NCBI GenBank assembly: GCA_963765635.1
Contig: CAVXXF010000002.1
Location: forward strand, 914,411 to 978,410
DNA from: an uncultured Thermoleophilia bacterium
GTDB taxonomy: Bacteria > Actinomycetota > Thermoleophilia > UBA2241
Reading direction: 5' to 3'
DNA: 64,000 bases
The stretch's first letter is position 1. The number at the start of each line of letters is the position of its first letter. The translations under genes and the position numbers were made by a program. A model generated the notes under the pieces. That model did not search any database and had not been told where the DNA came from. It worked only from the letters and a program-made list of their open reading frames with translations. This document shows positions 13,280 to 35,806 of the stretch, piece by piece.

Positions 13280-15061
13280 CTACTCGCCGAAGGTCATCTC
13301 GCGCAGGAAGACCTCATGGAACCGGCTGTCCATGGCCAGTTCGCGGAACGTGATCTTCCTTCGGAGCTCGGCGATCCGCTCGCGCTGACGCACGTCGATC
13401 AAGGCCATCTGCGCGCCGACTCCGGCGGCGTTCCCCACGAAAGCGATGCGGTTCGTGGCGATTGGCGGAAGCAGCCCGATGGCCAGCGCGTTATCCAGAC
13501 CCAGGTAGTTGCCGAACGCCCCGGCGACGAAGACGTGACGCAGGTCCTGGGGCTCCAGGCCGGCGTTCGAGAGCAGCAGCGACCATCCGGCGGCAATCGC
13601 TCCCTTGGCCAGCTGGAGGGCCCGTACGTCGCGCTGCGTGAAGACGATCTCGCCCTGGGCGCCCTCCGCCACCAGATACTCGAGGCCGCGTGCGCCTCGG
13701 CGCACGCGTTCGTGGGCCTGCATCAGGCCCGATCTGTCGACGACCCCGGTGGCGAGTAGTCCGGCGAGGATATCGACGACCCCGGAGCCGCAGATCCCGA
13801 CCGGCTCGGCCCGGCCGATGGTCTGGATGTGCCTTGGCCGGCCATCGGTGGTGAAGTCGATGCGCTCGATGGCGCCCTCGGTAGCCTTCATGCCGCAGGT
13901 GATCTGATAGCCCTCGAAGGCCGGCCCCGATGCGCAGCTCGTCACCGATACTTTGCCGTCCTTGACCAGCGCGATCTCGGTGTTCGTGCCGATGTCGATG
14001 GCCATGGCCGGCAGGCGCTTCGCCTCGAGGTGCGTCGCCGCGATGACGGCCAGGCAGTCTGACCCAACGAAGCCGGCGATGGGCGGCATGAAGTAGATGC
14101 GCCCCTCGGGGTTCATGGTCACGCCCAGATCGGCGGCGCGCAGTGAGAGCGGTTCGTCGAGCGCCGGCGCGAACGGAGCACCCGTCAACCCCAGGGGCGA
14201 CAGCCCCAGCGCCAGATGGTGCATCGCCGTGTTGCCCACGATCACCATGTCGTACACGTGCTGCGCGGAGATCTCCTGGCGAACGCAGAGCGTCGCGAGT
14301 ACCTCGTTGATGCCCTCTGCGGCAAGACGCGTGAGCTCGAGCAGCGCTGCTTCATCCAGAGCCTCGGTGATCCGCGAGATCACGTCCTCACCGTAACGCA
14401 TCTGCGGATTCTCGATGGCCTCCTGGTCGATCAGGTGGCCTTCCTGAAGGTCCATGAGGTAGACGATGATCTTGGACGTGCCGATGTCGACGGCGGCCCC
14501 GTAGGCGCTCAGGCCGACGTGCCTCGGCTCGATGTCGATGAGGCATCCTTCGTACATCGTGGTGGTGACCGAGAAGCGGCCGTCACGCAGGGACACGGGA
14601 AGCTTGCGCAGCACCGACAGAGGCAGAGCGGTGGCGCCCAGCTCCTCCCGCACACGCTCGCGGTCGCTGCGCGCGTCCTCGAACGTGGCGCGAGGTAGCG
14701 TGGCAGCTTGCCTGCCGACCGCGGACCGGGCCTCGCCGTGCGTGAGCTTCGAGGCCGTGAGGATCTGCCGGCGACCCGCGGTCTCGCGCACCTCGACGCT
14801 GACGCGCGCCGAGAGCGGCATGGCCTGACACGCAAGGCGCCAGCCCTCGGCGCGCTGCTCAGGCGTCAGCTTGCTCAGCTCGACGCTTGTCGGAGGGCTG
14901 AGCTCTCCCGCTCCCAAACGTACCCGGCACTTGCCGCACGTCCCCCGGCCGGCGCAGTCGACAGGCAGGCCTACGGCCGCACTCGATACGGCCGCCAGCA
15001 GCGTGTCGCCGGCGGCGACCTCGACGGTGACGCCGATGGGCTCAACAAGGACCTTGAACAC
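13280..15061 (-). CDS. corrinoid activation/regeneration protein (RamA/RACo-like: N-terminal 2Fe-2S ferredoxin + ASKHA ATPase, DUF4445)
   Basis: N-terminal plant-type ferredoxin CxxGxCGxC motif (CAGRGTCGKCRV), long ATPase domain. GTG start at 15061 with RBS AAGAGG. Divergent from mtmB. Confidence 0.75.
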   Translation of the reverse strand: MFKVLVEPIGVTVEVAAGDTLLAAVSSAAVGLPVDCAGRGTCGKCRVRLGAGELSPPTSVELSKLTPEQRAEGWRLACQAMPLSARVSVEVRETAGRRQILTASKLTHGEARSAVGRQAATLPRATFEDARSDRERVREELGATALPLSVLRKLPVSLRDGRFSVTTTMYEGCLIDIEPRHVGLSAYGAAVDIGTSKIIVYLMDLQEGHLIDQEAIENPQMRYGEDVISRITEALDEAALLELTRLAAEGINEVLATLCVRQEISAQHVYDMVIVGNTAMHHLALGLSPLGLTGAPFAPALDEPLSLRAADLGVTMNPEGRIYFMPPIAGFVGSDCLAVIAATHLEAKRLPAMAIDIGTNTEIALVKDGKVSVTSCASGPAFEGYQITCGMKATEGAIERIDFTTDGRPRHIQTIGRAEPVGICGSGVVDILAGLLATGVVDRSGLMQAHERVRRGARGLEYLVAEGAQGEIVFTQRDVRALQLAKGAIAAGWSLLLSNAGLEPQDLRHVFVAGAFGNYLGLDNALAIGLLPPIATNRIAFVGNAAGVGAQMALIDVRQRERIAELRRKITFRELAMDSRFHEVFLREMTFGE

Positions 15062-15266
15062 TGGTGCACCTCTTTCCGGGCGGGGCGAGAGCCTGGCTCT
15101 CGACGAGCGATGGCATGCGATCCTCGCTATGTATCTCACAAGGTCTGTGGATGCTGCAACGGCGGGCCCCTGGGAGTGGCGGCTGCCTGCACGACGTGCG
15201 GCCCTTCGCCGACCACTGCGGGGAGCCTGTGGAATCACCGCACCATGTTGGACAAACGGCAGTCTC

Positions 15267-15297
15267 TTGACGATGTCTCCCCACCAAAGCGTATACT
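15267..15297 (+). promoter_or_regulatory. candidate sigma70-like promoter (TTGACG, N19, TATACT) upstream of mtmB
   Basis: Hexamers read directly in the divergent RACo/mtmB intergenic region. The spacer is long, so confidence is low. Confidence 0.3.
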
Positions 15298-15437
15298 CCG
15301 GATGATTCGGCGATGAGTCGCATCGCTGGAGTCACGCGGATGCCATCGAGTCTCCGACAGGGAGGTGGTGCTCTAGCCCGAGGCAACAGCGAGCTGGAAT
15401 CAGTCTTCTGAACCGCGAGTCTGGAAGGAGGAGCCAC

Positions 15438-16847
15438 ATGGCTGGACCTGGGACCAAAGCCCAGCGCGAGCGCATGTCGGTCTTCGAGGCGTACGAGAGG
15501 GCCCGCAAGGGGCCAAAGGTCGATGAGGCGGTCTGGAACTTCGAGACCATCCCGCAGACGGCCACACGCCTCAAGGAGAAGTACGGGATCAAGATGGACA
15601 AGAGCGTCATGGTCCCCACTGATCCCGAGATGATGAAGAAGCTCTATCAGGCCGGTCTCGAGATGCTCGTCGAATGCGGCGTGTACTGCATCTCCACCGG
15701 ACGCGTCATCAAGTGGACCGAAGAAGAGGTCCTTCTCAACCTCGCCACAGCGCCGAAGGAATGCGTGATCGGCGAGGGACTCCACTCCCGCCGAATGTTC
15801 CCGCGCTCGCACAAAGACACGCGTCCGCCGCTCGTCCAGGGCGGCCCCACTGGCGCGCCCTGCAGCGAAGAGCACTTCTTCGGCATCCACGAGTCATACG
15901 TCAAAGAGGGTATCGTCGACTGCATCGTCGACGGGGTGCTCTCCACGGTCAACGGCTATAACCCGGCTCCGGACACCCCGTGGGAGGTCCTCGCCGGTCG
16001 CCAGGAGATCATGATGGTCCGCATGGCGCAAGCCAAGTGCGGCCGCCTGGGGATGGGTTTGTAGGGCCCAGAGACCACTCTGAACGCTGCTGCCACGATC
16101 TCTCAGGATTTCGTGGGCGGCATGCGGAAATCAGACAACCACGAAGTCTCGCAGTTGAATGAGCTGAAGTGCGACATAGGCGCGTTGACCTTCACTTCTC
16201 ATTACAATCTCGCTGCCGACGTCGTGATGGTCGAGCAGATGCCAATCTTCGGTGGTTTTGCCGGTGGTCTCGAGGAGACGACCATCGTCAACGTCGCCAC
16301 GCATCTCAACTCTTTCGTCACGTTCGGTGGTACTTGGCACCTTGATGGTCCGGTGCACATGCGCTGGGGGATCACGACGACCAGGGAGGCCCTGGCCATC
16401 GCCGGTCACGCCATCATGGCGGTCAACTCCGTCTGGCCGAGCCTCATGAGCGGCAATCAGTACTACACGATGGCCGGTCCGTGTACGGTCATGTGCCTGC
16501 TGGAGACCGCCGCCCAGGCGATCACCGACACCTCCAGTGGTCGCGAGATCATGTCCGGCGTCGCCGCCGCCAAGGGCGTCATCACCGACAAGACCACAGG
16601 CATGGAGGCGCGGTTCATGGGCGAGTGCGCTCACGCCGTGGCCGGCATGCCTACCCAGCAGACCAACGAGATCCTCGATGCCCTCGTCAAGATGTACGAG
16701 GGCGACTACAAGACCGCCGACCAAGGCAAGTTCTACCCAGAGTGCTACGACACGGTCAAAGTCGTCCCGACCGACGAGTACCTCGAGGTCTACGACAAGG
16801 CCTGCGCCGCCATGAAGGGTCTCGGCGTCAACTACAAGCTGTGGTAG
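15438..16847 (+). CDS. mtmB: monomethylamine:corrinoid methyltransferase with in-frame UAG (predicted pyrrolysine) at 16062-16064
   Basis: The two track ORFs (15438-16064 and 16113-16847) are in the same frame, separated only by TAG. The flanks GRLGMGL*GPETTLN align to the Methanosarcina MtmB pyrrolysine site (GRPGMGV-O-GPETSLS). Strong identity elsewhere (KLYQAGLEMLVECGVYC, HEVSQLNELK). Confidence 0.8.
16062..16064 (+). other. in-frame amber codon in mtmB, predicted pyrrolysine
   Basis: TAG sits at the conserved pyrrolysine position, and the reading frame is conserved across it. Confidence 0.75.
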
Positions 16848-16895
16848 AAGGAGTCCGGACAGTGACCACGCCGAGTTCAAGGAGGCTGTTGGGAA

Positions 16896-17543
16896 ATGGG
16901 AAATGAGGCGTTCTACAAAGAGGCGATCGACTCTCTCGTGAACCACGACAAGGTCGTGGCAGAAGACGTGGCCAAGCGTGCCATTGCTGCCGGCGTCAGC
17001 CCGCAGGAGATCATGCAGAACGGGTTCGTCGTTGGCATCCGCCAGGTCGGTGACCAGTTCGACGAGGGCGAGGTCTACCTGCCCGAGCTCATGCTGGCGG
17101 CGGCGGCGATGGAAGCCGCGATGGCGATCTGCAACGCAGCTCTGCCCGAGGGCGAGAGCGAGACGCGTGGCGTCGTCGTCATCGGCACCGTCGAAGGCGA
17201 CGTCCACGACATCGGCAAGGCCATCGTCTGCGCGTATCTGCGGGCGAACGGCTACGACGTTCACGACCTCGGTCGCGACGTGCCGGTGGATGCGTTCGTC
17301 GACAAGGCCGAGGAGGTCAACGCCGACATTATCGGCGCCAGCGCTCTGCTCACGGCGACCATGCGCAAGCAGGCCGAGATCCTGGCCGAGCTCGACGACC
17401 GGGGCATCCGCGACAAGTACAAGTTCGTGGTCGGCGGCGCGCCGTGTACGCAGGAGTACGCGGACTCCATCGGCGCCGACGCCTACGCCGCGGACGCCAG
17501 CGACGGCGTCAAGAAGATCGAGAAGATGCTGGGCATCAAGTAA
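16896..17543 (+). CDS. mtmC: monomethylamine corrinoid protein (B12-binding)
   Basis: DxHxxG cobalamin-binding motif (GDVHDIGK), MtmC-like N-terminal helical domain. RBS GGAGG. Confidence 0.8.
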   Translation: MGNEAFYKEAIDSLVNHDKVVAEDVAKRAIAAGVSPQEIMQNGFVVGIRQVGDQFDEGEVYLPELMLAAAAMEAAMAICNAALPEGESETRGVVVIGTVEGDVHDIGKAIVCAYLRANGYDVHDLGRDVPVDAFVDKAEEVNADIIGASALLTATMRKQAEILAELDDRGIRDKYKFVVGGAPCTQEYADSIGADAYAADASDGVKKIEKMLGIK

Positions 17544-17578
17544 GAAGAGGTCGGGCTGCGGCAAGCGGCTCGTGTCAC

Positions 17579-17886: not shown

Positions 17887-18246
17887 ATGAGCACGCCCGA
17901 TGTCGACCACGTCGTCGAAGAGGCGATCGAAGCCCAGGAGCGCGCCGGTAAGCACGACCCCCGCATCGACAAGCTGTACAGGCAGGACACCACCGTCATC
18001 TACTTCTTCGTCGTGACCTTGTGGGTCGTGCTGTGGGGCGTGTTCTTCCTCGTCGCCAACCCGGAGATTACCAACGACTCACTGCGCTGGCTCCTCATCG
18101 GACTCGGCCTTTTCGCCTCGATCTTCAACAGCGTCGGCATGATCTCCAACACGCGGAGGCTCAAGCACGAGGCGGTGCGCTTCTACTCTCAGGACCTCTT
18201 CTGGCAGGACGAGAAGAAGCGCCGCAAGGCGGCGGGCCTCCTGTGA
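17887..18246 (+). CDS. small membrane protein (2-3 TM)
   Basis: ATG after a G-rich RBS, hydrophobic segments, tightly packed with the following small ORFs. Confidence 0.4.
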   Translation: MSTPDVDHVVEEAIEAQERAGKHDPRIDKLYRQDTTVIYFFVVTLWVVLWGVFFLVANPEITNDSLRWLLIGLGLFASIFNSVGMISNTRRLKHEAVRFYSQDLFWQDEKKRRKAAGLL

Positions 18247-18276
18247 GCGGCGCATCATCCCATAAGGAGGCCATCG

Positions 18277-18453
18277 ATGGCTGAGGAAGAACGTCGCCAG
18301 GAGCCCAAGGAGGAGTGGGTCCCGTACAAGGACTACAAGGCGCCCACGCAGAGCACCCTGTGGCAGATCATCGACGTGCTTTTCGTCCTGATCCTCTGCT
18401 ACATCTGCCTGCTGATTCCGATCCTGCTCACCGGCAAGCTGATCGTGGGGTGA
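18277..18453 (+). CDS. 58-aa single-TM membrane protein (below the ORF-track size cutoff)
   Basis: Strong RBS AAGGAGG 6 nt before the ATG. C-terminal hydrophobic helix IIDVLFVLILCYICLLIPILL. Confidence 0.4.
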   Translation: MAEEERRQEPKEEWVPYKDYKAPTQSTLWQIIDVLFVLILCYICLLIPILLTGKLIVG

Positions 18454-18456
18454 GCG

Positions 18457-18792
18457 ATGAAACGTTTGTCACGTACCGGGGCGCGCTCGTCCAGCAGGGC
18501 TCGCCGGCTCATCTCACTGCTGGCGATCGCGCTGCTTTGCCTCACCATCGCGGCCATCTTCGCCGGGGCCGCCCTCGCTGAGGGCGGCGTGATCATCACG
18601 GGCAACGGCACGGAGATCGCCACGTCCGAAGGCATGGAGGCGCCGTCGCTCGACTACACGTTCGTGTGGTGGAGCTTCATCCTCACGTTCGGCCTTCTTG
18701 CCCTCTACTACATCTTCGTGCTGCGCATATCCAACACGGAGTTCAAGAAGATCATCGACGCCCACTTTGGGCCGAAGCAAGACGGGGAGTGA
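18457..18792 (+). CDS. small membrane protein (N-terminal and C-terminal TM)
   Basis: ATG 4 nt after the previous stop; two hydrophobic segments. Confidence 0.4.
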   Translation: MKRLSRTGARSSSRARRLISLLAIALLCLTIAAIFAGAALAEGGVIITGNGTEIATSEGMEAPSLDYTFVWWSFILTFGLLALYYIFVLRISNTEFKKIIDAHFGPKQDGE

Positions 18793-18797
18793 CCGGC

Positions 18798-18986
18798 ATG
18801 GTATGGATCAATTACGCCGCCTGGGCGCTGTCCATCCTTTTCCTGGGGTGGACGATCGTCGACGCATTCCGCATTGAGACCACCTACGACCATGACCTCC
18901 TCGTCAGTTCCGTCGAGGGTGAGATCGAGAAGGAGATCCTCGATCACGCGCACCCGGCAACTCCACCGGCCCAGTCGGGCGACTGA
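18798..18986 (+). CDS. 62-aa single-TM protein
   Basis: ATG 6 nt after the previous stop. Its stop overlaps the start of the permease (TGATG). Confidence 0.35.
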   Translation: MVWINYAAWALSILFLGWTIVDAFRIETTYDHDLLVSSVEGEIEKEILDHAHPATPPAQSGD

Positions 18987-20421: not shown

Positions 20422-20862
20422 TTGTTTGAGACTCTGTTGGTAGCTACCGACGGTTCACGCGCGGCTCAGAAGGCCGTGGAATACGCGGTCGAGTTCGCCA
20501 AGCGCCACGACTCCCGGCTGATCATCTGCAACGTGACCTCGGAGAGGATGGTGAGGCTCCAGAGTGCCGAGCCGAACCCGCCGGACGTCGACATCTCGCT
20601 GGAGGGCGCCGGCGACCGCATCTCCACAGAGGCCCTGGCACGGGCCGAGGCGGCGGCGAAAGCGGCCGGCGTGAACTACGAGCTCGATGAGATCTACGGC
20701 AGAAACGTCGCGGCCGCCATCGCCAAGGAGGCCGTGGCCGTCGGCGCCGATCACATCGTCATCGGCTCGACCGGGCAGACCCAGCTTGCGACGTGCGTGC
20801 TGGGGTCGGTCGCGCAGAACGTGGTGCACTACGCCCACTGTCCCGTGACGGTGGTCAGATAG
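20422..20862 (+). CDS. universal stress protein UspA
   Basis: UspA fold signature ...HIVIGSTGQTQL...GSVAQNVVHYAHCPVTVV. Confidence 0.75.
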   Translation: MFETLLVATDGSRAAQKAVEYAVEFAKRHDSRLIICNVTSERMVRLQSAEPNPPDVDISLEGAGDRISTEALARAEAAAKAAGVNYELDEIYGRNVAAAIAKEAVAVGADHIVIGSTGQTQLATCVLGSVAQNVVHYAHCPVTVVR

Positions 20863-20908: not shown

Positions 20909-21580
20909 ATGGACATCTTCTCTCTCCCCCTCAGGATCGCCATCGTCACGGCTGCGGCCCTGCTGCTGGGCTGGGTTTTTCTCGCCTACTTCCGGCGGGA
21001 CCGGAGCAAGATGGAGCACATGCTGGATCCGTTCCTCGGCGCCCTTGACGAGCCTCACACGGGGCGCAGCCCGTGGGGCTACGAGTTCGCCGAGGGAGCG
21101 CTTGACGGCCGTCCGGCCCGGGTGAGTCTCATCCCCGACTCGCTGATCACCCGCACCTTGCCCACGCTGTGGCTCGAGCTGCGCTGGGCGCGGCGTCACG
21201 ACGCCTGGCTCTGCGTCATCCTGGGGGCCAATGGCATGGAGTACTTCGCCGACGACGTCGACGAAGGCTCCCGGCTGATCTCGCCGCGCGAGTGGCCGGA
21301 GAGCGTCCTGGTGCGCGGGAAGGGCCCTGGGAGCGCTGCCTTGGCGCGGCGCCTGCGGGACCTAGACCTCACAGCCTACGAGGACCTCAAGATGTTCACG
21401 CTCAGCGAGACCGAGACCAAGGTGATCATGCGCTGTGCCCGGGCCGACGTGCCCTACTACAGAACACTGCGTTCGGCGGAATTCCCCGAAGACTCGGTGA
21501 AGCCCGAGCTGGTATCCGAGACAGTCCGCGTCCTGCGCGACATCGAGCGCACTCTGGATGCCGTGGAGGACGTCTCGTGA
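20909..21580 (+). CDS. hypothetical protein with N-terminal TM
   Basis: ORF with plausible codon usage; no family recognised. Confidence 0.4.
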   Translation: MDIFSLPLRIAIVTAAALLLGWVFLAYFRRDRSKMEHMLDPFLGALDEPHTGRSPWGYEFAEGALDGRPARVSLIPDSLITRTLPTLWLELRWARRHDAWLCVILGANGMEYFADDVDEGSRLISPREWPESVLVRGKGPGSAALARRLRDLDLTAYEDLKMFTLSETETKVIMRCARADVPYYRTLRSAEFPEDSVKPELVSETVRVLRDIERTLDAVEDVS

Positions 21581-22077
21581 CGAGCGGCCCCCGGCGCCCG
21601 AGGCAGCGCAAAGAAGAGCCCAAGGGGGTCCTGAGGAAGCCCCGCCCGGTGTGGTTCGTCACGCTCATGGCGTTCGTGCTCCCGGGCAGCGGCCAGGTGT
21701 TCAACGGCGCCCCGGCCCGAGGCGTCATCTTTCAGTTCGGCATAGTCCTGGGAGCGTTCATCTCGTATGAGCTGACCACGCCCGACATCTCTCCCCTCGG
21801 TCGCATGGCCGGCGGACTGCTGGTCTACGTGTTCTCCATCGTCGACGCCAACGGCATCGCCAAGCTTCGCGTCAAGGCTTGGGAGCGAATCGAGGCGGGC
21901 CAACCGCCTCGATACCGAAAGGGCATGGCGACCGAGGCGGCCGTCGAGGGCCGCCCAAGCGGCCTCAGCAAGAAGGGTGTAGCGAGCACTCCGGGCCGCA
22001 AGCGACCACCGCCCAGCGACGAGACGGCCGAATCTGGGGCACGCCAGACCCACGGTGACCACACCGGCACTCGCTGA
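21577..22077 (+). CDS. hypothetical membrane protein
   Basis: GTG start overlaps the previous stop; two TM segments. Confidence 0.4.
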   Translation: MTSGPRRPRQRKEEPKGVLRKPRPVWFVTLMAFVLPGSGQVFNGAPARGVIFQFGIVLGAFISYELTTPDISPLGRMAGGLLVYVFSIVDANGIAKLRVKAWERIEAGQPPRYRKGMATEAAVEGRPSGLSKKGVASTPGRKRPPPSDETAESGARQTHGDHTGTR

Positions 22078-24750: not shown

Positions 24751-25006
24751 CCGCACGCTCGTAGACGCTCAACTCGGCGGCGCGACCGGGCCGGATCCGC
24801 AACGCGGGCCCGGCCGTGCCGCCGAAGTAGGGCTCTTCAAGTCGCCGAGCCTGGCCTGAGCGCAGCACGCGGCCGGATAGCTGCGCCCGGAGCTCAGATC
24901 GGGGCTGCGAGTGGCGAGGTCATGACACCCCCTCCGCCTCGCAGCCCCGATTTAGTGAAGACCGGTCGAATGCCGGCCTGTGTCTGCCAGAGACGTCCCG
25001 AAAGCT

Positions 25007-25462
25007 CTATTCCTTGGCCGGGACCACCAAGACCGGTACGTGGGCCGTATGCAGCAGTGCCTGGGTCGTGGATCCGAGCACGGTGGTCGCCTCAGAGGCG
25101 CCGGCGCCTTTGGCGCCGACGACGATCATGTCGGCATCGACCTCACGCGCCACGGTGACCACGATCGCCGCCGGATTCCCGCGGCTGCAGGCGGTGCCCG
25201 CCTCGATCCCGACGGCCCGCACCGTCTGAGCCGCCTCCTCGAGATCGGCGTTGATCTTGTCCTCCATCTGGTCCCAATGCTTCTCCATCTCCATCGCCGC
25301 CTGCCACAACGGCTCATAGCCGAGCCAGCCAGGGCGACGGTCGTGGCCGCAGGTGATGAAGATCTTGCTCCCTGGCCTGTCCTTGGCCAAGCCGATGGCC
25401 GCGTCCAAGGCGTTCTTGGCCGCCTTGGAGCCGTCATATCCGACCACGAAGGTGTTCGCCAT
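25007..25462 (-). CDS. universal stress protein UspA
   Basis: UspA signature. Confidence 0.75.
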   Translation of the reverse strand: MANTFVVGYDGSKAAKNALDAAIGLAKDRPGSKIFITCGHDRRPGWLGYEPLWQAAMEMEKHWDQMEDKINADLEEAAQTVRAVGIEAGTACSRGNPAAIVVTVAREVDADMIVVGAKGAGASEATTVLGSTTQALLHTAHVPVLVVPAKE

Positions 25463-25614
25463 GCCGCACGCTCCTCTCTCAGTGCAATTGACCGGCCGGC
25501 GCGCCGCCGACCGGAAAGGACAGCCTCAGCCGTGCCCATCGATTCGGGTGGGGCATGCGTCCGCGACAAGGTCGCGGACGCATGCCCCGGACAGGCCTGC
25601 GGCCATCCTGTTGA

Positions 25615-27225
25615 TCAGTACGTCTCACGCACCCCAGCGAAGAACACTTCGTGGTCGTCCACCGGCTCCGCGGAGACGGCGTCGAGCTGCTCTTGCGACG
25701 GCGGCTTGGTGAGGAAGGTCACGACTACGAGCGTGACGAAGGCGAGGATCACGCCGATGACCGCGAAGCCATAGCCGGTATCGATCAGCGCCTGCGGAGC
25801 CGGGTAGTCGTACTCCAGCACGTACTTCTCGACGAGGTAGAACACCAGCGTCCCGACCCCGCCGACCAGAGACGCGGTAAACGCGGCCGCGTAGCCGACC
25901 CGCTTCCAGAACATGGCCAGCACCGCCACGGCGACGCCGGCCGAGAGCAGGCCGCTGGAGAAGTAGTAGGCGTCCCACAGGGCGTTCGGCAGCGTGTCGA
26001 TGAGGAACGTCACGCCGAGGGTCACGATAACGGTGACCAGCGACGCGATCCGGCTGAAGAACACGATGCGCGCGTCGCCCCAGCCGCGCTTGCGGTAGAC
26101 GAGCGGCTGCAGGACATCGTAGCTGGCGTTCAGGGCCGACACGTTGGTGAACGTGGCGATGGTGGCGATGGCGTGGGCCGCCAGCAGACAGAACGTGATC
26201 ACCAGCAGCCACGGCGGGAAGTACTCGGTGAGGAACACCGGCATGAGCTGGTAGGGGTCGCCTCCGAGCAGATTCTGGAACTGCTCGGGCGGATAGAGCA
26301 CGAGGCCAAAGAGGCCGATGAGGCTCGGCAGCGCGAGGATCCAGATGATGTTGTAGACGAGGTTGGCCCAGATGCCGTTCCGTGCCGCGCGAGTGCTGGT
26401 GGCCGACTGTGCCTTGAGCCACCAGTCTTCCTCGATCATCCACCCGGGAAGGAGTGCTATGAGCGAGAAGAAAGCGAACGGTATGCCGAGACTGAACAAG
26501 GTCATGGCGCTTTGGCCCGGTGCGTTGCCCGGCGGGACCACATTCGAGAGGTAATTGAGCATGCTCTGCCCCTCGGGCAGATGGTTGAACGACTCATAGG
26601 TCATCACGATGGTGACGATGGTGACGAACGCCACGCCCATGGCGAACTGCAGCAGGTTGGCACTGATGACCGCGTGGAAGCCGCCCAGCGCCATGTACAC
26701 CGCGACCGGCACCGCGAAGACGATGTACAACACCCAGGGTTCGACGCCAAATGAAGGCGCGAGGTACTGCGACACCGTCCAGATCTCGGCGGCCGACCAG
26801 ATGACGAAGGCGATGATGTTGAACGGGCTGACCAGCACGCGGAGACCTAGCCCGAAGCGCTGCTGCAGGCATTGCGGCTGCGAGATCGCCTTGAAGCGTC
26901 GCACGTTGGGCACCAGGATGACCATGGTGAACAGCAGCACGGTCCATGGGACGACCATGGACCAGATGCCGCCGATGCCATACATGTAGGTATTGGCCAT
27001 GGCCCAGGTGATGAAGCCGATCAGGAACCAGCCGGCGGCGATGGCGCAGCCGACGACCAGGGCGCTGTTGCTGCGTTTGGCGATCCAGTAGTCGTCGTGC
27101 TCGTCGGTGGCTGTCTTCTGCTTCTTCTGGAAGTTGTAGGTCCAGACGCCGATCCCGATGAGCACGAACATGTACGGGATGACGATCGCCCAGTACCAGA
27201 TAGGACTGGCTGCAGCTATGATCAT
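25615..27225 (-). CDS. sodium:solute symporter (SSS) family transporter
   Basis: 13-TM SSS-like architecture, 536 aa. Confidence 0.7.
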   Translation of the reverse strand: MIIAAASPIWYWAIVIPYMFVLIGIGVWTYNFQKKQKTATDEHDDYWIAKRSNSALVVGCAIAAGWFLIGFITWAMANTYMYGIGGIWSMVVPWTVLLFTMVILVPNVRRFKAISQPQCLQQRFGLGLRVLVSPFNIIAFVIWSAAEIWTVSQYLAPSFGVEPWVLYIVFAVPVAVYMALGGFHAVISANLLQFAMGVAFVTIVTIVMTYESFNHLPEGQSMLNYLSNVVPPGNAPGQSAMTLFSLGIPFAFFSLIALLPGWMIEEDWWLKAQSATSTRAARNGIWANLVYNIIWILALPSLIGLFGLVLYPPEQFQNLLGGDPYQLMPVFLTEYFPPWLLVITFCLLAAHAIATIATFTNVSALNASYDVLQPLVYRKRGWGDARIVFFSRIASLVTVIVTLGVTFLIDTLPNALWDAYYFSSGLLSAGVAVAVLAMFWKRVGYAAAFTASLVGGVGTLVFYLVEKYVLEYDYPAPQALIDTGYGFAVIGVILAFVTLVVVTFLTKPPSQEQLDAVSAEPVDDHEVFFAGVRETY

Positions 27226-27623
27226 GTATTCCCCCTACTCAGTGTGGACCCGACCACGACAGACCCGGAGAGGTATACCGGCCTCCGTCCGGTGTCGAGG
27301 CTCTGAACAGCATCTGCGCGATGCTGGAGACCGGTCATCCGCTCGATCAGCCAAGGGCATCACCTCCCCAGCCTAGGGGGGATGCCCAAGGATCCGGCGA
27401 AGAGCACGGACCTGTCACCACGGGCAGGCCAAAGGCCCTCGATGAAGCATCTGGCGACCGTTCAGACAAAGCCAAGTCCGCGCCTTCCCTCCGTGGCGAG
27501 ACAGCTCCACTCTTGAGTGGAGAGTCCCGCCTGTATTTAGTGCAAGCTAATGCGCCTTCGCGGCCGCGTCAATAGGCAGCGCACCGACCATCGACAGTCC
27601 GGGTCGTCTCGCTCCACGACGAT

Positions 27624-28499
27624 TCACTTCTCACGCACCCACCGTCTGTAGATTCGAGCCGCCCGCCGGTCCATGTCAAGCGTGATGTCGACACCGTCGC
27701 GTTCAAGCGCCTCCGCGGCGCCCGGGACGCGCGCGCGACGCAGGCAGATGAGTGCGCTGAGCAGGAGGCTCCGCCGACGTTTGTCCTCGGAGCGCAGTGA
27801 TTCCTCGATGATCGGGACGACGTCGCCACGAAGCTCCGCCATCCCCAGTGAGAGAAGGGCTGCCACTGCGACTCCGCCGAACTGGGGCGCGACCTCGATG
27901 ACGTGTCGCACGCCCGCGAAACGCATGCCGTTGACGCTCAGGCGTGCCTCCATACGTTCTCTGTGGACCCGCGAGTACATCCGTATGAAGGTGCTGTTGC
28001 CATCATCACGCTCGGTGCTGGCCTTCATGCGCGCGAGCTGACGGTCTATCTCCTCGTTTCGTAGGCGGCCCAACAGCTCGACCCTCTCGGCCATGCGAGT
28101 GGCGGGCTCGGCAAGGTCGGGAGCCTCTTCGCCGGCCGCGATCGCGCGCAGCAGCTCGTGCGCGGCCGGCAGATCGCGGTATCGAGCGTAAAGATAGACG
28201 GCATGAAGGGCGCCCTGGCGGCGTAACTCCTCGTCCGACCCCAGCTGGGCGGCGATCGCCGGGAATGTCTCCTCACCAAGCTCGACGAGCACGGCGCCCG
28301 CACTGCGCTGCCACTGCTCATCGCCCAGCAAGTCCATCAGGGCGGTCTGGCCACCACCACCCAGCGACTCTAAGGCGACCCGAGCGGCGTGACGCTTGTC
28401 ACGCCGCTTCGCGGATTCAAAGGCTTCGATCAGTCCGGTGACATCGCCGGCGTCTCGCATGGCCGCGATCTTGTCCCCGCTCGACAACCGCTTAGGCAT
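27624..28499 (-). CDS. HEAT-repeat (PBS-lyase-like) protein
   Basis: Repeated alpha-helical pairs. ATG at 28499 preceded by GGGAGGA; the longer track ORF was rejected. Confidence 0.5.
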   Translation of the reverse strand: MPKRLSSGDKIAAMRDAGDVTGLIEAFESAKRRDKRHAARVALESLGGGGQTALMDLLGDEQWQRSAGAVLVELGEETFPAIAAQLGSDEELRRQGALHAVYLYARYRDLPAAHELLRAIAAGEEAPDLAEPATRMAERVELLGRLRNEEIDRQLARMKASTERDDGNSTFIRMYSRVHRERMEARLSVNGMRFAGVRHVIEVAPQFGGVAVAALLSLGMAELRGDVVPIIEESLRSEDKRRRSLLLSALICLRRARVPGAAEALERDGVDITLDMDRRAARIYRRWVREK

Positions 28500-28721
28500 A
28501 TGGTCCTCCCTCGCGCGCCTCGATCCCCAGGTCCAGCGTGATGGCGCGACCACAGGGTATATGTACTCGAGGGGACAGGCCAGTGCACGAGGCATGCAGG
28601 TGAGCCTGACCGGATACGGGGATGCGCACTGCGACCCTTTACGTACCCTGCCCTCGTCGCCGGCCGCTCGATCGTGCAGGCTCACACTGGGGGCGAGCGC
28701 CTCACTCGCCCGCTGGCGGCA

Positions 28722-29048
28722 TCAACCGCCGGAGATCGCCACGAGCGCGTCTTTGGGGAACGCCAGCTCCGCGGCCACGCGCATCGCCTTCAGCGCCGAA
28801 GCCGGCACGATGCAGTCGGTGCAGCAGCGGCCCTCACGGCCCGCGGCGAGCACGGTGTTCTCGCTGCGGGGATCGATCTCCTTGTAGGCGTCGAGTGGCG
28901 ACCGTTCGGCGAGCAGCGCCGCAAACCGGGTCACGTTGTCGCAGTCGGTCTCGAGAACGATGCTCACGGCACGGCCGTCACTCGTCTCGGCGCGCGCGAG
29001 CGTACGAAAGCCACAGATGCCGGGCTGGATATCCGCCTCTGCTTGCAT
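28722..29048 (-). CDS. hypothetical 108-aa Cys-containing protein (C12, C36, CCxxC)
   Basis: ORF with an 18-bp perfect palindrome 35 bp upstream; no family recognised. Confidence 0.35.
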   Translation of the reverse strand: MQAEADIQPGICGFRTLARAETSDGRAVSIVLETDCDNVTRFAALLAERSPLDAYKEIDPRSENTVLAAGREGRCCTDCIVPASALKAMRVAAELAFPKDALVAISGG

Positions 29049-31887: not shown

Positions 31888-33540
31888 ATGGAGGATCAAG
31901 ACCGCTCTCAGTCAGACATGATTCGGTCTGACGTTTCGGATAAGTACCTCGCCGACTACGGCGACGAGTACAAGCAATCACGCTTCCAAACCAACATGCG
32001 CCGAGACCTCAGCTGGGTCGGCGCCTTCTTCGTGGCCGCCGGCGTGCCGGCGCTGATCCTGTTCTCGATGGGTGGCATCTCCGCCGGCACCGGGCCGGTC
32101 GCCGTACTTGTATGGACGCTTTCAGTGCTGGTCGGCTTCGTCGACGCCTTCATCTACGCCGAGATCGCCGGGCTCCACCCGAAGAAGTCGGGTGGCACCG
32201 CGGTGCACGGCGCGACTGCCTGGATCCGCTACATCAGGCCCGCGGCGCCGATCTCGCTGTGGTGCAACTGGCTGGCATGGACACCGGTGCTGGCGCTCGG
32301 CTCCGGTCTCTGCGCGGGGTATCTGCTCTCTGTCTTCTTCGCCCCCGACGCCACCATCAACACGTGGTCGGTCACGATCGCCAATCTCGATTTCTTGAAG
32401 GATGGGCTGACGCTGCGCATCAACGCGGTATTCATCATCGGCGCCGTCATCATGCTCGCCGTGTGGAATATCCAGCACTACGGCATCCTGCGCACCGCGC
32501 GCGTCCAGATGATCCTCACGATCGGGGCGATGACGCCCTTGATCCTGCTGACGGTCATCCCGCTGATCACCGGCGACGTGGTGGCGAGCAACTTCTCGCC
32601 GTTCGTGCCGGTCAACGGCTCGTGGAACCTCGACGGCTGGACGGCGTTCCTGGGAGGCTTCTTCATCGCCGCTTGGTCCGCCTACGCCTTCGAGACGGCC
32701 ATCTGCTACATGAGCGAGTTCAAGAACCCCGGGCGCGACCAGGCCAAGGCCATTCTCTGGTCCGGCGTGTTCTGCATCTTGTGCTACACCGTGATCCCGT
32801 TCGTTTGGCAGGGCGTCCTCGGCACCGACTACATGCTCAAGCCCGAGATCTACTCGGGGGCCGGCGTTCCTCAGGGTTTCGCGGACATGTTCAACGCCGG
32901 CGCAACCTTCACCAAGTTCTGCGCGGTCGCCATGTTCTTCACGGTGATGCTGTCCGTGATGACGGCCATGTCGGGCTCGTCACGGACCCTCTTCCAGGGC
33001 GGTCAGGACGGCTGGCTGCCCAAGTACCTGGCGCACCTCAACAACCACAAGGTGCCGACCTACGCGATGTGGACCGACCTCATCTTCAACCTGTTCCTGC
33101 TGCTGATGTCGGACTACGTCTTCGTGCTCGCCGTCTCCAACTGCAACTACATGATCTTCAACTTCCTCAACCTGAACGCGGGCTGGATTCACCGCAGGGA
33201 CAACCCGCGCGTGCCGCGGCCCTTCAAGGCGCCGCTGCCGCTCTTCGTGCTTGGCACCTGCTTCGCCTACATGAACGTGTTCCTTCTGGGAGCCGGCGCG
33301 AACTACTGGGGCCAGGGCACGCTGCTCATGGGCTGGATCTCGGCCCTGATCGCCCTCCCGGTCTTCTACTACCGACACTACGTCACCGACAAGGGCAAGT
33401 TCCCGTCGCACATGTTCGACGACCTCATCCCCGAGGGCGAGACCGAACTGGGGCCCAAAAGGTGCGGCGTCCTGCCGTACGTCGCCGTCGCCGGCGGCCT
33501 GGCGTGCATGACCCTCGGCTACGTCATCTTCTGGGTCTGA
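31888..33540 (+). CDS. APC-superfamily permease (second copy), candidate methylamine transporter
   Basis: 12-TM APC architecture. ATG MEDQDRSQ... after a G-rich RBS; the longer upstream extension was rejected. Confidence 0.7.
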   Translation: MEDQDRSQSDMIRSDVSDKYLADYGDEYKQSRFQTNMRRDLSWVGAFFVAAGVPALILFSMGGISAGTGPVAVLVWTLSVLVGFVDAFIYAEIAGLHPKKSGGTAVHGATAWIRYIRPAAPISLWCNWLAWTPVLALGSGLCAGYLLSVFFAPDATINTWSVTIANLDFLKDGLTLRINAVFIIGAVIMLAVWNIQHYGILRTARVQMILTIGAMTPLILLTVIPLITGDVVASNFSPFVPVNGSWNLDGWTAFLGGFFIAAWSAYAFETAICYMSEFKNPGRDQAKAILWSGVFCILCYTVIPFVWQGVLGTDYMLKPEIYSGAGVPQGFADMFNAGATFTKFCAVAMFFTVMLSVMTAMSGSSRTLFQGGQDGWLPKYLAHLNNHKVPTYAMWTDLIFNLFLLLMSDYVFVLAVSNCNYMIFNFLNLNAGWIHRRDNPRVPRPFKAPLPLFVLGTCFAYMNVFLLGAGANYWGQGTLLMGWISALIALPVFYYRHYVTDKGKFPSHMFDDLIPEGETELGPKRCGVLPYVAVAGGLACMTLGYVIFWV

Positions 33541-33707: not shown

Positions 33708-34148
33708 TCAGACCACAAGGACCGGGATACCTCCCGCCTCGTGCAGGACGCGGTTCGTGGTGGAGCCCAGGCGGGACTTCTCGCCTTGAAGCGCGCCGGC
33801 GCCCTTCGTGCCCATCACGATCAGGCGCGCGTTCGTTTCGCGTGCGATGTTGACGATGGTCAGGTCGGGCCGATCGGGGGTGCAGGCTGTGGCTACCTTG
33901 ACGCCGGCCGCCCTGACCCGAGCCGCTGCGAGGTCGAGCTCCTCCTCGATCTTCTTGGTGAGCTTGTCCCACATCTCCTCGACCCCAAACTCGGCTCCTC
34001 GGAAACCGACCGCCGGCGCCGGTCGATTCTGGGCACAGGTGATGATGATCTCGCTGTCGGGCATCATTCTGGCAAACTCGACGGCGACGTCGAGGGCCTT
34101 CGCGGCGTGATCTGAACCGTCGTACCCTACGATGATGGTATCGGCCAT
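33708..34148 (-). CDS. universal stress protein UspA
   Basis: MADTIIVGYDGSDHAAKALD ... PVLVV. Confidence 0.7.
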   Translation of the reverse strand: MADTIIVGYDGSDHAAKALDVAVEFARMMPDSEIIITCAQNRPAPAVGFRGAEFGVEEMWDKLTKKIEEELDLAAARVRAAGVKVATACTPDRPDLTIVNIARETNARLIVMGTKGAGALQGEKSRLGSTTNRVLHEAGGIPVLVV

Positions 34149-34271
34149 GGCGCTTACCCCCACTCACTTCGGTTGTTCATACGTGTACCCCGTGCACAGC
34201 TGCGACAATCCACAGGGCTCGATCAGCGAGTTGCGCCGACCAGACCCGGTCGTCCTGCGCGTCGCCCTCGT

Positions 34272-34805
34272 TCAGCTCACATCCTCCTCGTCTGGCTCGT
34301 CGCCCTCGTCGTCCAGCAACCCGCGCGCCTCGAGCTTCTCGAGTGCCTCGCGCGCCAGCTTGCGGACGTCGCGGCGAGCGTCCGCAGCCAGCTCGCGCAA
34401 CCCATCCACGGCCGGGCTTCCGATCTTGTCGAGAATATCGAACACAAGGACGTGGTAGAGGTACCTCGCGTTCTCCTCGGGGTTGCCGTACGCGTCGTAC
34501 TCGCGAATCGAGGACACCAGAGGCGTGACCGCGCGGGTGCCCAGTCTCGTGAGAGCCCGTCCGGCCTCGTTGAGGAGCCGGATGCTTCGCGTCGGAAGTC
34601 GCTTCTTGCGGCCGACGCTGTGAGACTCGGCCCACATCGCCGTCTCGTAGAGGTACTCCACCACGGCAGACACGTCCTTGCGCAGCACCGACATGGCCGC
34701 GCGGCTCTCCGCAGGAGCCTTGTCGTGCAAGGCCCAGTAGACGAGTCGCGGCATGTCACCATCGCGCCGCATCTTCTCGAAGTCGGGCGGGCTGAAGATC
34801 CCCAT
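34272..34805 (-). CDS. HEAT-repeat protein (second copy)
   Basis: Helical repeats, acidic C-terminus. ATG at 34805 after AGAGG. Confidence 0.45.
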   Translation of the reverse strand: MGIFSPPDFEKMRRDGDMPRLVYWALHDKAPAESRAAMSVLRKDVSAVVEYLYETAMWAESHSVGRKKRLPTRSIRLLNEAGRALTRLGTRAVTPLVSSIREYDAYGNPEENARYLYHVLVFDILDKIGSPAVDGLRELAADARRDVRKLAREALEKLEARGLLDDEGDEPDEEDVS

Positions 34806-35019
34806 GCATCGGCCTCTGTCCGCGGGAGGTTCTGTGCCGCAGTCTAGCGGTCGGGCCGCACGTGCGCCAGCACGATTCATTCCCCACATGCCAGGCCGCC
34901 GCTATACTAGACGAGCAGCCCGCGTGGGCGCACAGACGCCGCCGGGGGCGACTGCGGCACCCGTCTCATCGCTGACAGTCGGGCCCGGTCGATTCGCCAA
35001 CTGGAAAGCGAGGTCAACG

Positions 35020-35806
35020 ATGTCAGCAGATCTCAAAGAGCAGCTGCGCTCCGCGGCGGCCGATCACGGGTTCGAGTTCTTCGGCGTCGTCGACGCCGGC
35101 AAGCTCGCGGAAGTCCCCTTCCCGCCGAACCGCTGCCTCGACGTCCCCAGCGGCTTTCTGCCCGAGGCGAAGAGCGTCATCGTGATGGGCATGCACATCT
35201 GGGACGTCATGCAGAACGCGGTGGTCACCTCGGTGCTCCCGGACGGCGCCATCCCCTTCGACGACGTCCCCGGATCCCAGTACTACAACATGTACTACGA
35301 GATCACCGAGGCTCGCGCGCATCGCTTCGCCGAGGCCGTGCGCGACGCCGGCTACAAAACCGCGGTCACGCATTTCGTCCACGCCAAGGCGGCCGCCACG
35401 CTCGCCGGTCTCGGCTGGATCGGCAAGCAGACGCTGTGCATCACGCCGCAACTGGGTCCACACGTGCGCTGGGCGTGTGTGGTCACCGATGCCGTGTTGC
35501 CCTACGACGAGCCCTTCACCGAGGACCTCTGCGGCGAGTGCGAGCTCTGCATCAAGGCGTGTCCGACGCAGGCCATCATTCCCGGGCCCCTCCCAGGGAG
35601 TGGAGCCCGGCAAGAAGGTCGACTTCTGGAAGTGCATCGTCCCGCAGGAGATGCTGGCCGAGCCCAACAAGGCGTGGCAGAAGGTGGCTGGCCACTACTC
35701 GCCGCGCGGCAGCCACGAGTGCCTCATCTGCCTGGATGCCTGCCCCATCGGCAGGGAAGAGCACGAGCGCCGCGTCAAGGCCTATGGCTTGAGGCCGAGC
35801 GGCTGA
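35020..35806 (+). pseudogene. QueG-like (DUF1730 + 2x[4Fe-4S]) Fe-S protein, +1 frameshift near 35585-35600 (pseudogene or indel error)
   Basis: The first ferredoxin motif CGECELCIKACPTQAI lies in frame 1. The second, CLICLDACPIGRE, continues in frame 2 (track ORF 35477-35806). There is a C/G homopolymer run at the junction. Confidence 0.5.

Follow-up and report, generated by a model that had tools for sequence, protein, structure and literature searches.

How did a block of genes for pyrrolysine (Pyl)-dependent methylamine use come to lie between recX and rny in an actinobacterium, and does it appear functional there? The host of the 64-kb stretch of DNA analysed here (the window) is a high-GC soil or sediment actinobacterium related to Thermoleophilia. 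Its backbone runs dapB-dapA-rnj-ftsK...rimO-pgsA-cinA-recA-recX, island, rny-miaB-(AmmeMemoRadiSam B/A)-miaA-dapF-aminotransferase-hflX. A first-pass annotation had recognised the island, rightly, as a real block, but its limits of 13280-35806 are refined here to 13256-35869 (22.6 kb), bounded by the recX stop codon on one side and by the rny promoter on the other. We favour, at a probability of about 0.75, the reading that the island is an accessory block for the first half of methylamine demethylation, inserted from within a Pyl-decoding class. The island genes, identified with Pfam and NCBIfam profiles, and the two backbone borders are as follows.

12593..13255, + strand: recX, left backbone border (Pfam RecX_HTH1/2/3)
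13280-15058, - strand: RACo-type reductive activase of corrinoid proteins (Pfam Fer2, RACo_linker, Raco_middle, RACo_C_ter)
15438-16847, + strand: mtmB, monomethylamine:corrinoid methyltransferase (Pfam MtmB, 652 bits)
16896-17543, + strand: mtmC, cognate corrinoid protein (Pfam B12-binding_2, B12-binding; TIGR02370, 227.7 bits, over the 215.3 cut-off)
17887..18986, + strand: four short ORFs for predicted membrane proteins (119, 58, 111 and 62 aa), immediately 5' of APC permease 1
18986-20404, + strand: APC-family permease 1, candidate methylamine importer (Pfam AA_permease)
20422..20862, + strand: universal stress protein Usp1 (Pfam Usp, E = 7e-30)
20909..22077, + strand: two function-unassigned proteins, one of 223 aa and a predicted membrane protein of 166 aa
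22055-22303, + strand: glutaredoxin-like protein with a CPYC motif, 'Uxx-star' family (Pfam Glutaredoxin; NCBIfam NF041212, 85.7 bits, above the 66 cut-off)
22647-24044, + strand: mtbB, dimethylamine:corrinoid methyltransferase (Pfam Dimeth_Pyl, 661 bits)
24106-24750, + strand: mtbC, corrinoid protein (Pfam B12-binding_2, B12-binding; TIGR02370, 208 bits)
24751..28721, - strand: variable cassette of the next three genes (Pfam Usp, SSF)
25007-25462, - strand: Usp2 (Pfam Usp)
25615-27225, - strand: SSS transporter (Pfam SSF)
27624-28499, - strand: 291-aa helical protein
28722..29048, - strand: small Cys-rich DUF6951 protein, divergent from mttB (Pfam DUF6951, E = 1e-22)
29330-30805, + strand: mttB, trimethylamine:corrinoid methyltransferase (NCBIfam TIGR02369, 608 bits, above the 525 cut-off)
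30854-31483, + strand: mttC, corrinoid protein (Pfam B12-binding_2, B12-binding)
31885-33540, + strand: APC-family permease 2 (NCBIfam NF053774, the NCBI model for trimethylamine N-oxide permease, 764.5 bits, above the 690 cut-off)
33708-34163, - strand: Usp3 (Pfam Usp, E = 6e-23)
34272-34805, - strand: 177-aa helical protein (Pfam HEAT_2 at E = 0.035)
35014-35806, + strand: QueG/reductive-dehalogenase-superfamily 2x[4Fe-4S] protein, last island gene
35870..36174, + strand: rny promoter-like site and leader, right backbone border (77% aligned identity to the recX-rny spacer of L002, the closest species representative)
36175..37707, + strand: rny (RNase Y), first backbone gene right of the island (Pfam RNase_Y_N, KH_1, HD)

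The activase gene has TAG as its stop codon, 24 nt away from the end of recX. Its product joins an N-terminal 2Fe-2S domain to an ASKHA ATPase domain and scores below the cut-offs of both the AcsV-like NCBIfam model (394 bits, cut-off 800) and RamA (TIGR04270, 124 bits, cut-off 500). APC permease 1 is akin to the ethanolamine-permease family (NCBIfam TIGR00908, 210 bits, below cut-off). The four small membrane ORFs have a high in-frame GC3, and the gene calls of L082, L084 and L087 show them in identical order; a profile search gave no significant family match for them, nor did Pfam or NCBIfam for the 223- and 166-aa proteins, which are conserved in L082-L084 and L087. At the position of the variable cassette, L083 and L084 carry SSS and Usp genes on the opposite strand with just 72-76% nucleotide identity, and L082 holds pieces of both versions and a decayed SSS transporter; the DUF6951 gene keeps its position in all three. 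The 2x[4Fe-4S] protein scores 79 bits with NCBIfam QueG (below 200) and 57 bits with RDH, and its best PDB matches are 5d08 and 4uqu. Compared with the intact 266-aa ORF of L093, the window copy of this gene contains a single additional base around 35579. The profiles upheld the gene list of the first-pass annotation except for two supposed HEAT-repeat genes: HEAT_2 on 34272-34805 is the sole match, 27624-28499 has none, and the AlphaFold models of both proteins are all-helical and of low confidence (pLDDT 51-54). The HEAT-repeat call is unproven.

As for the origin of the block, the same annotation had deduced horizontal acquisition of a full module from a GC content of 60% against 72%. The island is indeed lower in GC, but only by 3.8 points (65.1% vs 68.9% outside), a difference significant across 1-kb windows with overlapping ranges (means 0.652 vs 0.689, Mann-Whitney p = 7e-7). 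GC3 is nearly equal (0.87 vs 0.89 in the flanks); the deficit lies mainly at codon position 1 (0.63 vs 0.70-0.72), and the non-coding share of the island is larger (20% vs about 9%). The synonymous-site composition is almost native, and the deficit, located in first codon positions and non-coding DNA, mirrors protein composition rather than a donor signature. Some foreign signal remains, since the codon-usage distance between island and flanks (0.036) is modestly above that of random flank-gene subsets (0.023 +/- 0.003).

Related modules were found elsewhere. MtbB homologues form a distinct clade at >=77% identity, followed by a gap to <=64%. A module occupies the same recX-rny site in L084 and other sites on contigs L085 and L086, whose proteins are 74-95% identical to those of the window. 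With dS of about 0.3-0.7 between the window and L084 islands and mostly about 0.4-0.55 between the window and L002 backbones, the L084 lineage seems about as diverged from the window as the island-free L002, the host position of L084-L086 being gauged from island-gene divergence only. The search for homologues of PylSc gave 2879 proteins with E <= 1e-10, none tied to the source contig; the best 120 of the 2879 are 63-78% identical to the query, and two of these 120, from Thermoleophilia and Actinobacteria MAGs, are named 'pyrrolysine--tRNA(Pyl) ligase large subunit' by NCBI. There is a large PylSc clade, assigned to Thermoleophilia/Actinobacteria by NCBI protein names.

The lower GC, the slight codon-usage excess and the patchy distribution among relatives would fit a recent import in which the entire module came from a phylogenetically remote user of Pyl (Firmicutes, Deltaproteobacteria or a methanogen). 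We consider it unlikely in view of the near-native third positions, the same-site island in a lineage as diverged as L084, the PylSc clade, and the nearest out-of-clade homologues, which are 63-65% identical and also lie on high-GC contigs (68-71% GC). The sister copy at the same site, the modules at other sites and the numerous PylSc homologues make the history look like relocation or transfer within the Pyl-decoding class. Its arrival between recX and rny would predate the split of the window's species from at least one sister lineage, and the block most probably came from inside the same high-GC, Pyl-decoding class. These copies and the PylSc clade, together with the small GC contrast, the almost native synonymous sites and the lack of mobility genes or repeats, weaken the earlier case for horizontal acquisition, of which the insertion itself stands.

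The annotation had described an insertion into a conserved backbone, and synteny bears this out. In all 24 related Actinomycetota loci, spanning Rny identities from 89% down to about 56%, recA-(recX)-rny-miaB is contiguous with a recX-rny gap below 1 kb, and none has island proteins within +/-10 kb. In L002 (Rny 89% identical), the recX-rny spacer matches window sequence to the left and to the right of the island, at 12992-13154 and then from 35892, and shares with it the motif GAATTGACT (window ~35870; read by eye from both sequences). There the recX stop overlaps the -35 element of the rny promoter, which is the compact native arrangement. In the window, recX ends in TGA at 13253-13255 and its last ~100 nt are unlike those of relatives; rny has its native promoter-like site (TTGACT, 17-nt spacer, TACTAT) and a leader closed by a terminator-like hairpin that is kept in five genomes. 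No integrase, transposase, tRNA, or flanking or target-site repeat was found at the island. An ancestral island, deleted in relatives without any insertion, is slightly less probable still than a distant import. The L084 copy speaks for it, and near the L084/L002 node there must have been one loss or gain at the least; however, it would require many independent scar-free deletions across the contiguous loci, and the compact packing in L002 argues against it.

All three methyltransferase genes contain an in-frame TAG, conserved in every homologue compared. In mtmB (16062-16064) it aligns with residue 202 (Pyl202) of M. barkeri MtmB1 (PDB 1tv2/1l2q), and in mttB (30311-30313) with residue 334 (Pyl334) of M. 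barkeri MttB (PDB 7xcm), where Rfam PYLIS_3 matches from 30311 (49.8 bits). In mtbB (23706-23708), the Pfam Dimeth_Pyl alignment continues uninterrupted across the TAG, and Rfam PYLIS_2 (87.7 bits) starts exactly at 23706. All five genomes compared have intact regions downstream of the TAG, with dN/dS of 0.03-0.13 for mtmB, 0.01-0.21 for mtbB and 0.10-0.19 for mttB (0.01-0.21 overall, matching the 0-0.19 before the TAG). This purifying selection indicates that the TAG is read through, and the three-methyltransferase block is real and looks functional.

TAG also serves as an ordinary stop, ending 16 of the 60 window genes (27%; 11/36 in the flanks, 5/24 in the island). The first-pass annotation named seven such genes correctly, and its view that the host does not avoid TAG holds in substance; its overall share of about one third was too high. 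That termination and Pyl insertion compete at TAG is already recognised for Pyl-decoding bacteria, and hence not new. As the annotation had also stated, pyl genes and tRNA-Pyl are absent from the 64-kb window, whose only tRNA is tRNA-Pro; the pyl genes are presumably present elsewhere in this genome. One might take the methyltransferase genes for dead relics with TAG as a true stop in a host that makes no pyrrolysine, given the frequent TAG stops, the missing pyl genes and the decayed transporter of L082. The conserved TAGs, the constrained regions behind them and the intact cognate corrinoid proteins and activase render this very improbable. A chimeric join of two organisms by assembly or binning is hardly credible: the window does have two single-base frameshifts typical of long-read errors, and the L082 contig stops at window 13187 near the left border, but the left junction recurs in L082 (97.7% identical, different sample) and L084 and the right one in L093, a JGI contig that matches 35004-38490 collinearly at 95.2%; these come from four different samples or assemblies, short-read ones included.

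On the favoured reading of an inserted accessory block, the island would encode the substrate-specific steps that form the first half of methylamine demethylation by the corrinoid-dependent route. Pyl-bearing MtmB, MtbB and MttB would strip a methyl group from mono-, di- and trimethylamine, respectively, and pass it to the Co(I) corrinoid of the partner MtmC, MtbC or MttC; the RACo-type activase would reset oxidised Co(II) corrinoid to Co(I) at the expense of ATP. Amines are probably imported by the two APC permeases and the SSS transporter, whose substrates, like the methyl acceptor, we infer. The Usp proteins, the glutaredoxin, DUF6951 and the QueG/RDH-like Fe-S protein may be accessory or regulatory. 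The earlier description of a complete pathway does not hold, because a second-step methyltransferase (URO-D/MtbA, MtrH or pterin-binding type) is missing from the island and the rest of the window, as are the pyl genes. The rest of the genome would have to provide a methyltransferase from methylcorrinoid to tetrahydrofolate (or another acceptor), the C1 pathway downstream of it and the whole pyrrolysine apparatus (pylT, pylSc/Sn, pylBCD).

The island resembles the MtmB/MtmC, MtbB/MtbC and MttB/MttC systems of Methanosarcina barkeri in its three MT1 families, each with an in-frame UAG at the homologous residue (by alignment with proteins of solved structure for MtmB 202 and MttB 334, by Pfam and PYLIS_2 for MtbB), and in the order of each MT1 gene followed by its cognate B12-binding protein gene, with an ASKHA-type reductive activase (RamA in M. 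barkeri) nearby. It differs in that its activase is of the bacterial RACo/AcsV type with an N-terminal 2Fe-2S domain, TAG is not rare in the window, no MT2 gene lies in the island, and the host is a bacterium rather than a methanogen, so that the acceptor cannot be CoM via MtbA. A Pyl-type MttB with a corrinoid protein and an activase is shared with Acetohalobium arabaticum, Desulfitobacterium hafniense, Bilophila wadsworthia and the Olavius delta-1 symbiont, which likewise keep TAG as an ordinary stop. Unlike these, the island belongs to a high-GC actinobacterium, and each of the three Thermoleophilia contigs examined has a solitary pylSc that follows a cell-wall amidase gene instead of lying in a pylTScBCDSn cluster. 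In Bilophila, the pyl genes are also non-adjacent to the methyltransferase genes, but only MttB is present (PMC7593587), whereas the island groups all three methylamine methyltransferases in one block. Guo et al. (2022, PMC9630628) describe the PylRS catalytic domain of bacterial Pyl users as a separate protein, PylSc, and report PylRS in 'two Actinobacteria'. In the accessible parts of that paper and of Ellenbogen et al. (2023, PMC10805028), we found no description of the genomic placement, a three-enzyme island or a recX-rny insertion. Such Pyl methylamine systems were nevertheless already known, also in Actinobacteriota: in the latter paper, Stordalen Mire MAGs of the same phylum express the same Pyl-type methyltransferases, mttB and mtbB, recognised there by amber-codon truncation.

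The methylamine gene island (window 13256–35869, 22.6 kb) lies between the stop codon of recX and the promoter of rny. The flanking genes run in the following order:

Left flank: dapB-dapA-rnj-ftsK-...-rimO-pgsA-cinA-recA-recX
Right flank: rny-miaB-AmmeMemoRadiSam B/A-miaA-dapF-aminotransferase-hflX-dut

Comparison of the window RNase Y with species-representative genomes placed the host among Thermoleophilia-related Actinomycetota. The nearest match, L002, comes from Lake Loclat; this uncultured Thermoleophilia MAG shares 89% identity in Rny and 88% in RecA and is followed by Rny matches from MAGs labelled MFD with 76%, 75%, and 66% identity. The order recA-(recX)-rny-miaB is contiguous in all 24 related loci examined, with a recX-rny gap of less than 1 kb, and none of 21 island proteins found a match within ±10 kb of the locus in these 24. 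The L002 recX-rny spacer can be matched to the window to the left and right of the island: its recX body corresponds to 12992–13154, and its rny promoter and leader to the stretch from 35892 onward (77% identity). The first-pass annotation had proposed that the island interrupts a conserved backbone, and this synteny comparison bears it out. The motif GAATTGACT, read by eye, is common to the window and L002 at about 35870. The recX stop codon of L002 falls inside the −35-like TTGACT of rny; recX of the window differs in its 3′ tail and stop codon, and the stop of the RACo gene follows 24 nt on, on the opposite strand. Judged from the alignment, the island is placed precisely between recX and the rny promoter, and an insertion accounts for this far more parsimoniously than a large number of clean deletions would. 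The left junction is also found in L082, a conspecific contig from a different sample with 97.7% identity, and in L084, a contig with a related module. A junction-spanning pattern search recovered the right junction in the JGI metagenome contig L093, which is collinear with 35004–38490 at 95.2% identity. Because both junctions recur independently, an assembly chimera is excluded. We found no integrase, transposase, tRNA target, or flanking direct repeats at the island, and a search for repeats picked up nothing beyond the paralogous corrinoid-protein genes and chance hits.

Several further observations concern the borders. The L082 contig (ena:ERZ25039461:contig_5942, also listed as L001) breaks at window position 13187, 69 nt short of the recX stop and right at the island's left edge, possibly because strains in that sample differ at the junction. 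Compared with L093 (95% identical), the window carries one extra base at 35579, within a C/G homopolymer-rich stretch of a QueG/reductive-dehalogenase-like gene, and one at 38376 in miaB. Each splits its gene into two frames; both genes are intact in L093, and miaB also in L002. Errors of long-read assembly, not pseudogene formation, probably account for both extra bases. Upstream of rny (35870–36174, also in L002–L005), a promoter-like TTGACT-17 nt-TACTAT precedes a leader of about 280 nt, whose end, some 40 nt ahead of the start codon, forms a GC-rich hairpin with a U-run. The leader has no Rfam match; conservation of the hairpin in five genomes suggests that RNase Y expression is subject to attenuation or autoregulation.

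Nearly every island gene named in the first-pass annotation was verified by Pfam and NCBIfam. The methyltransferases for mono- and dimethylamine exceed the curated family thresholds (MtmB, PF05369, 652 bits; MtbB (Dimeth_Pyl), PF09505, 661 bits), and MttB, acting on trimethylamine (TMA), belongs to the pyrrolysine (Pyl)-type family with 608 bits against the TIGR02369 cut-off of 525. Directly downstream of each of the three genes lies one encoding a protein with B12-binding_2 and B12-binding domains. Only MtmC passes the TIGR02370 subfamily threshold of 215 bits (MtmC 228, MtbC 208, MttC 177). The activase contains all four RACo Pfam domains but stays under the cut-offs of the RamA subfamily model (124 vs. 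500 bits) and of AcsV (394 vs. 800 bits); we therefore assign it to the RACo family and not to RamA proper. The island further encodes two APC permeases, an SSS transporter, three Usp proteins, a glutaredoxin-like protein, and a protein of the QueG/reductive-dehalogenase Fe-S superfamily, which scores under the cut-offs and matches 5d08 and 4uqu best in the PDB. Three other features are located as follows:

31885–33540: APC permease 2, beside mttBC; NCBI trimethylamine N-oxide permease equivalog, 764 bits against a cut-off of 690
28722–29048: Cys-rich DUF6951 protein of 108 residues, always divergent from mttB (window, L082, L083, L084)
17887–18986: series of four small ORFs for predicted membrane proteins (119, 58, 111, and 62 residues) upstream of APC permease 1

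The permease match hints at trimethylamine N-oxide or TMA as its substrate. The series of small membrane ORFs is called likewise in L082, L084, and L087; a family search of their products gave no match, and they may be accessory transporter subunits. Several of the accessory genes (DUF6951, the small membrane ORFs, Usp, glutaredoxin, and the QueG/reductive-dehalogenase-like gene) are kept with the module in relatives. The two genes annotated as HEAT-repeat proteins are unproven as such, the sole match being HEAT_2 with E = 0.035 for one of them. Single-sequence AlphaFold models of these proteins are helical with low confidence (pLDDT 51–54), too poor for a fold search, and BLASTP gave no significant match between the two or with a HEAT_2-annotated neighbor of mtbB in the outgroup locus L088.

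The segment between mtbC and the DUF6951 gene (24751–28721) is a hot spot of cassette replacement within the island. In the window it carries Usp and SSS genes, both on the minus strand, and a gene for a 291-residue protein. The same slot in L083 (4812–7298) and L084 (11976–14488) holds plus-strand SSS and Usp genes with 72–76% nucleotide identity to the window versions, and L082 (11567–14883) has a decayed window-type SSS gene together with remnants of the other SSS/Usp type. A simple inversion of the Usp-SSS segment relative to L083 and L084 is ruled out, as these versions are 72–76% identical and the rest of the island is 85–95% identical.

Each of the three methyltransferase genes forms one reading frame with a single interrupting TAG, at 16062 (mtmB), 23706 (mtbB), and 30311 (mttB). 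The TAG of mtmB aligns with residue 202 of Methanosarcina barkeri MtmB1 (PDB 1tv2) and that of mttB with residue 334 of M. barkeri MttB (PDB 7xcm), both of which are the pyrrolysine positions. The TAG of mtbB is codon 354 and lies within an unbroken Pfam alignment. The Rfam elements PYLIS_2 (87.7 bits) and PYLIS_3 (49.8 bits) start exactly at the TAG of mtbB and mttB, respectively. Compared with each of four related contigs (L082 to L085), every TAG is retained, and dN/dS values are in a like range behind it (0.01–0.21) and before it (0–0.19). Since a genuine stop would let the downstream parts decay, selection on the segments behind the TAG points to decoding of UAG. This constitutes strong, albeit indirect, evidence from sequence evolution that the UAG codons would be read through to full-length proteins in this lineage. 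All three genes are called as two genes split at the TAG in every public contig fetched (L001/L082, L083, L084, and L086), so standard annotation under-reports these enzymes.

In the known system, a pyrrolysine-containing methyltransferase activates its methylamine and methylates a Co(I) corrinoid protein, and RACo or RamA re-reduces the Co(II) corrinoid at the expense of ATP. The methyltransferases, corrinoid proteins, and activase of the island are all present and intact, with the UAG frames under selection. The island permeases would import the amines, tetrahydrofolate would receive the methyl group from a second-step methyltransferase (MT2) encoded away from the island, and Pyl-tRNA would come from pyl genes located elsewhere. 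None of the 60 window genes encodes an MT2 of the URO-D/MtbA, MtrH, or pterin-binding type, and the previous description of a complete pathway was therefore too strong. A URO-D gene adjoins the cluster in the outgroup locus L089.

The island has a GC content of 65.1% versus 68.9% in the rest of the window. The 1-kb profile shows a modest, persistent dip over about 15–36 kb (0.652 ± 0.022 inside, n = 23; 0.689 ± 0.026 outside, n = 41; Mann–Whitney p = 7e-7), with overlapping ranges. The island had been singled out for its low GC; the significant dip agrees with this, but the proposed values of 60% versus 72% make the contrast about three times too large. By codon position, the island and flanks differ in GC1 (0.63 vs. 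0.69–0.72), less in GC2 (0.45 vs. 0.46–0.49), and are nearly the same in GC3 (0.87 vs. 0.89). Non-coding DNA makes up about 20% of the island and about 9% of the flanks. Given the small contrast, the near-equal GC3, and the larger non-coding share, the dip is real but mostly a matter of protein composition (membrane transporters, conserved enzymes) and longer spacers. Codon usage deviates slightly more than expected from random flank subsets (mean absolute RSCU difference 0.036 vs. 0.023 ± 0.003, maximum 0.033), and the residual foreign codon signal is weak.

The N-terminal part of MtbB falls into a tight clade (77–100% identity), set apart from the next relatives, which reach no more than 64%. 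L084 carries the whole island with 80–85% nucleotide identity, again directly after recX but with a different right end. In L085, RACo-mtmBC-grx-mtbBC adjoins mur/ftsW cell-division genes, and the cluster of L086 comprises a sigma factor, a two-component system, mtmBC, mtbBC, a glycyl-radical enzyme with its activase, mttBC, and DUF1638. The PFL-like glycyl-radical enzyme and radical-SAM activase of L086 (13461–16406), a contig with the same MtbB clade, lie between mtbC and mttB; the pair may be choline-TMA-lyase-like, making TMA beside TMA-consuming genes. Between the window and L084, island genes have dS values of 0.31–0.71, and between the window and the island-free L002, backbone genes mostly show 0.41–0.55 (cinA, 0.85). 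From this comparison, the island would have resided at recX/rny for about as long as the species have been separated. The nearest outgroup copies are 63–65% identical and likewise on high-GC contigs. Taken together, the module distribution, dS values, high-GC outgroups, and a clade of PylSc proteins (see below) favor movement of the module within a class already using pyrrolysine over import from a distant phylum. Horizontal acquisition, as suggested in the first-pass annotation, thus fits the interrupted gene order, but mobility signatures were not found at the island, GC3 is near-native, and movement within the class is favored.

As previously noted, the window has no pyl genes: we found nothing similar to pylS, pylB, pylC, or pylD, and its sole tRNA is tRNA-Pro. 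ARAGORN and a hand-made anticodon stem-loop scan found no tRNA-Pyl in the window or in 11 loci. No pyl genes stand beside mtbB in the relatives L084–L087 or in the outgroups L088 and L089. An exhaustive search of representatives with the catalytic domain of M. mazei PylRS (100% match to P0121), followed by a search for relatives of P0255, a representative chosen for its high-GC amino-acid composition, revealed a large PylSc clade of 284–286 residues with 63–78% identity to P0255. NCBI names two members, from a Thermoleophilia MAG and an Actinobacteria MAG, "pyrrolysine--tRNA(Pyl) ligase large subunit". Thermoleophilia/Actinobacteria MAGs contain many PylSc homologues, and no match in this search could be assigned to the source contig. 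Three contigs carry the gene behind an amidase_3 gene with a 4-nt overlap:

L090, 10001–10858: pylSc homologue
L091, 10001–10861: pylSc homologue
L092, 3528–4388: pylSc homologue

The surroundings are conserved and of housekeeping type (gltX, decarboxylase, TldD/PmbA, OsmC, amidase), and pylT, pylSn, and pylBCD were not found within 10 kb of pylSc in any of the three. In L090, mtbB and mttB fragments adjoin pylSc, and its mtbB is 47% identical to that of the window. L090 and L091/L092 represent lineages other than that of the window.

TAG is clearly not avoided as a stop codon in the window, where 60 genes end in 42 TGA, 16 TAG (27%), and 2 TAA. The TAG stops are distributed over 11 of 36 flank genes and 5 of 24 island genes. 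All seven genes previously named as ending in TAG do so; the accompanying estimate of one third was right in that TAG is common, and somewhat high as a share. Retention of TAG as a common stop is usual in Pyl-decoding bacteria. In A. arabaticum, expansion of the genetic code is reportedly confined to growth on trimethylamine.

Pyl decoding appears to have a large reservoir in the Thermoleophilia, one that is under-described. With a probability of about 0.45, slightly short of even odds, Thermoleophilia of soil, peat, and sediment would be a large, barely described group of non-methanogenic Pyl decoders that demethylate all three methylamines, with modules moving between sites, dispersed pyl genes with pylSc alone behind an amidase gene, and high-GC genomes in which UAG ends about a quarter of the genes. 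If so, Thermoleophilia would offer a natural system for conditional amber suppression and would possibly compete with methanogens for methylamines. Methylamines are non-competitive substrates for methanogens, and bacteria demethylating them without producing methane would divert carbon from methane in soils and wetlands.

The Pyl-dependent methylamine system has been known since the work on Methanosarcina, and bacterial examples are established. With this type of system and its occurrence in bacteria and Actinobacteriota already documented, the gain is incremental. Two papers report PylRS in two Actinobacteria genomes (PMC9630628) and expression of Pyl-type mttB and mtbB by Actinobacteriota MAGs from Stordalen Mire (PMC10805028). 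Our literature search found no paper substantively linking Thermoleophilia with pyrrolysine, only a co-mention in an unrelated soil survey. The points of interest are the union of all three methyltransferases in one block and the exact insertion between recX and the rny promoter, along with sequence evidence that, within the clade, the module has moved and cassettes have been swapped. The locus is a clean, well-bounded case of three Pyl-dependent methyltransferases in one actinobacterial block, with read-through indicated by sequence evolution. In Bilophila, the pyl genes are unlinked to the methyltransferase genes (PMC7593587). The usual bacterial arrangement is a pylTScBCDSn cluster, from which the dispersed, lone pylSc of L090–L092 differs.
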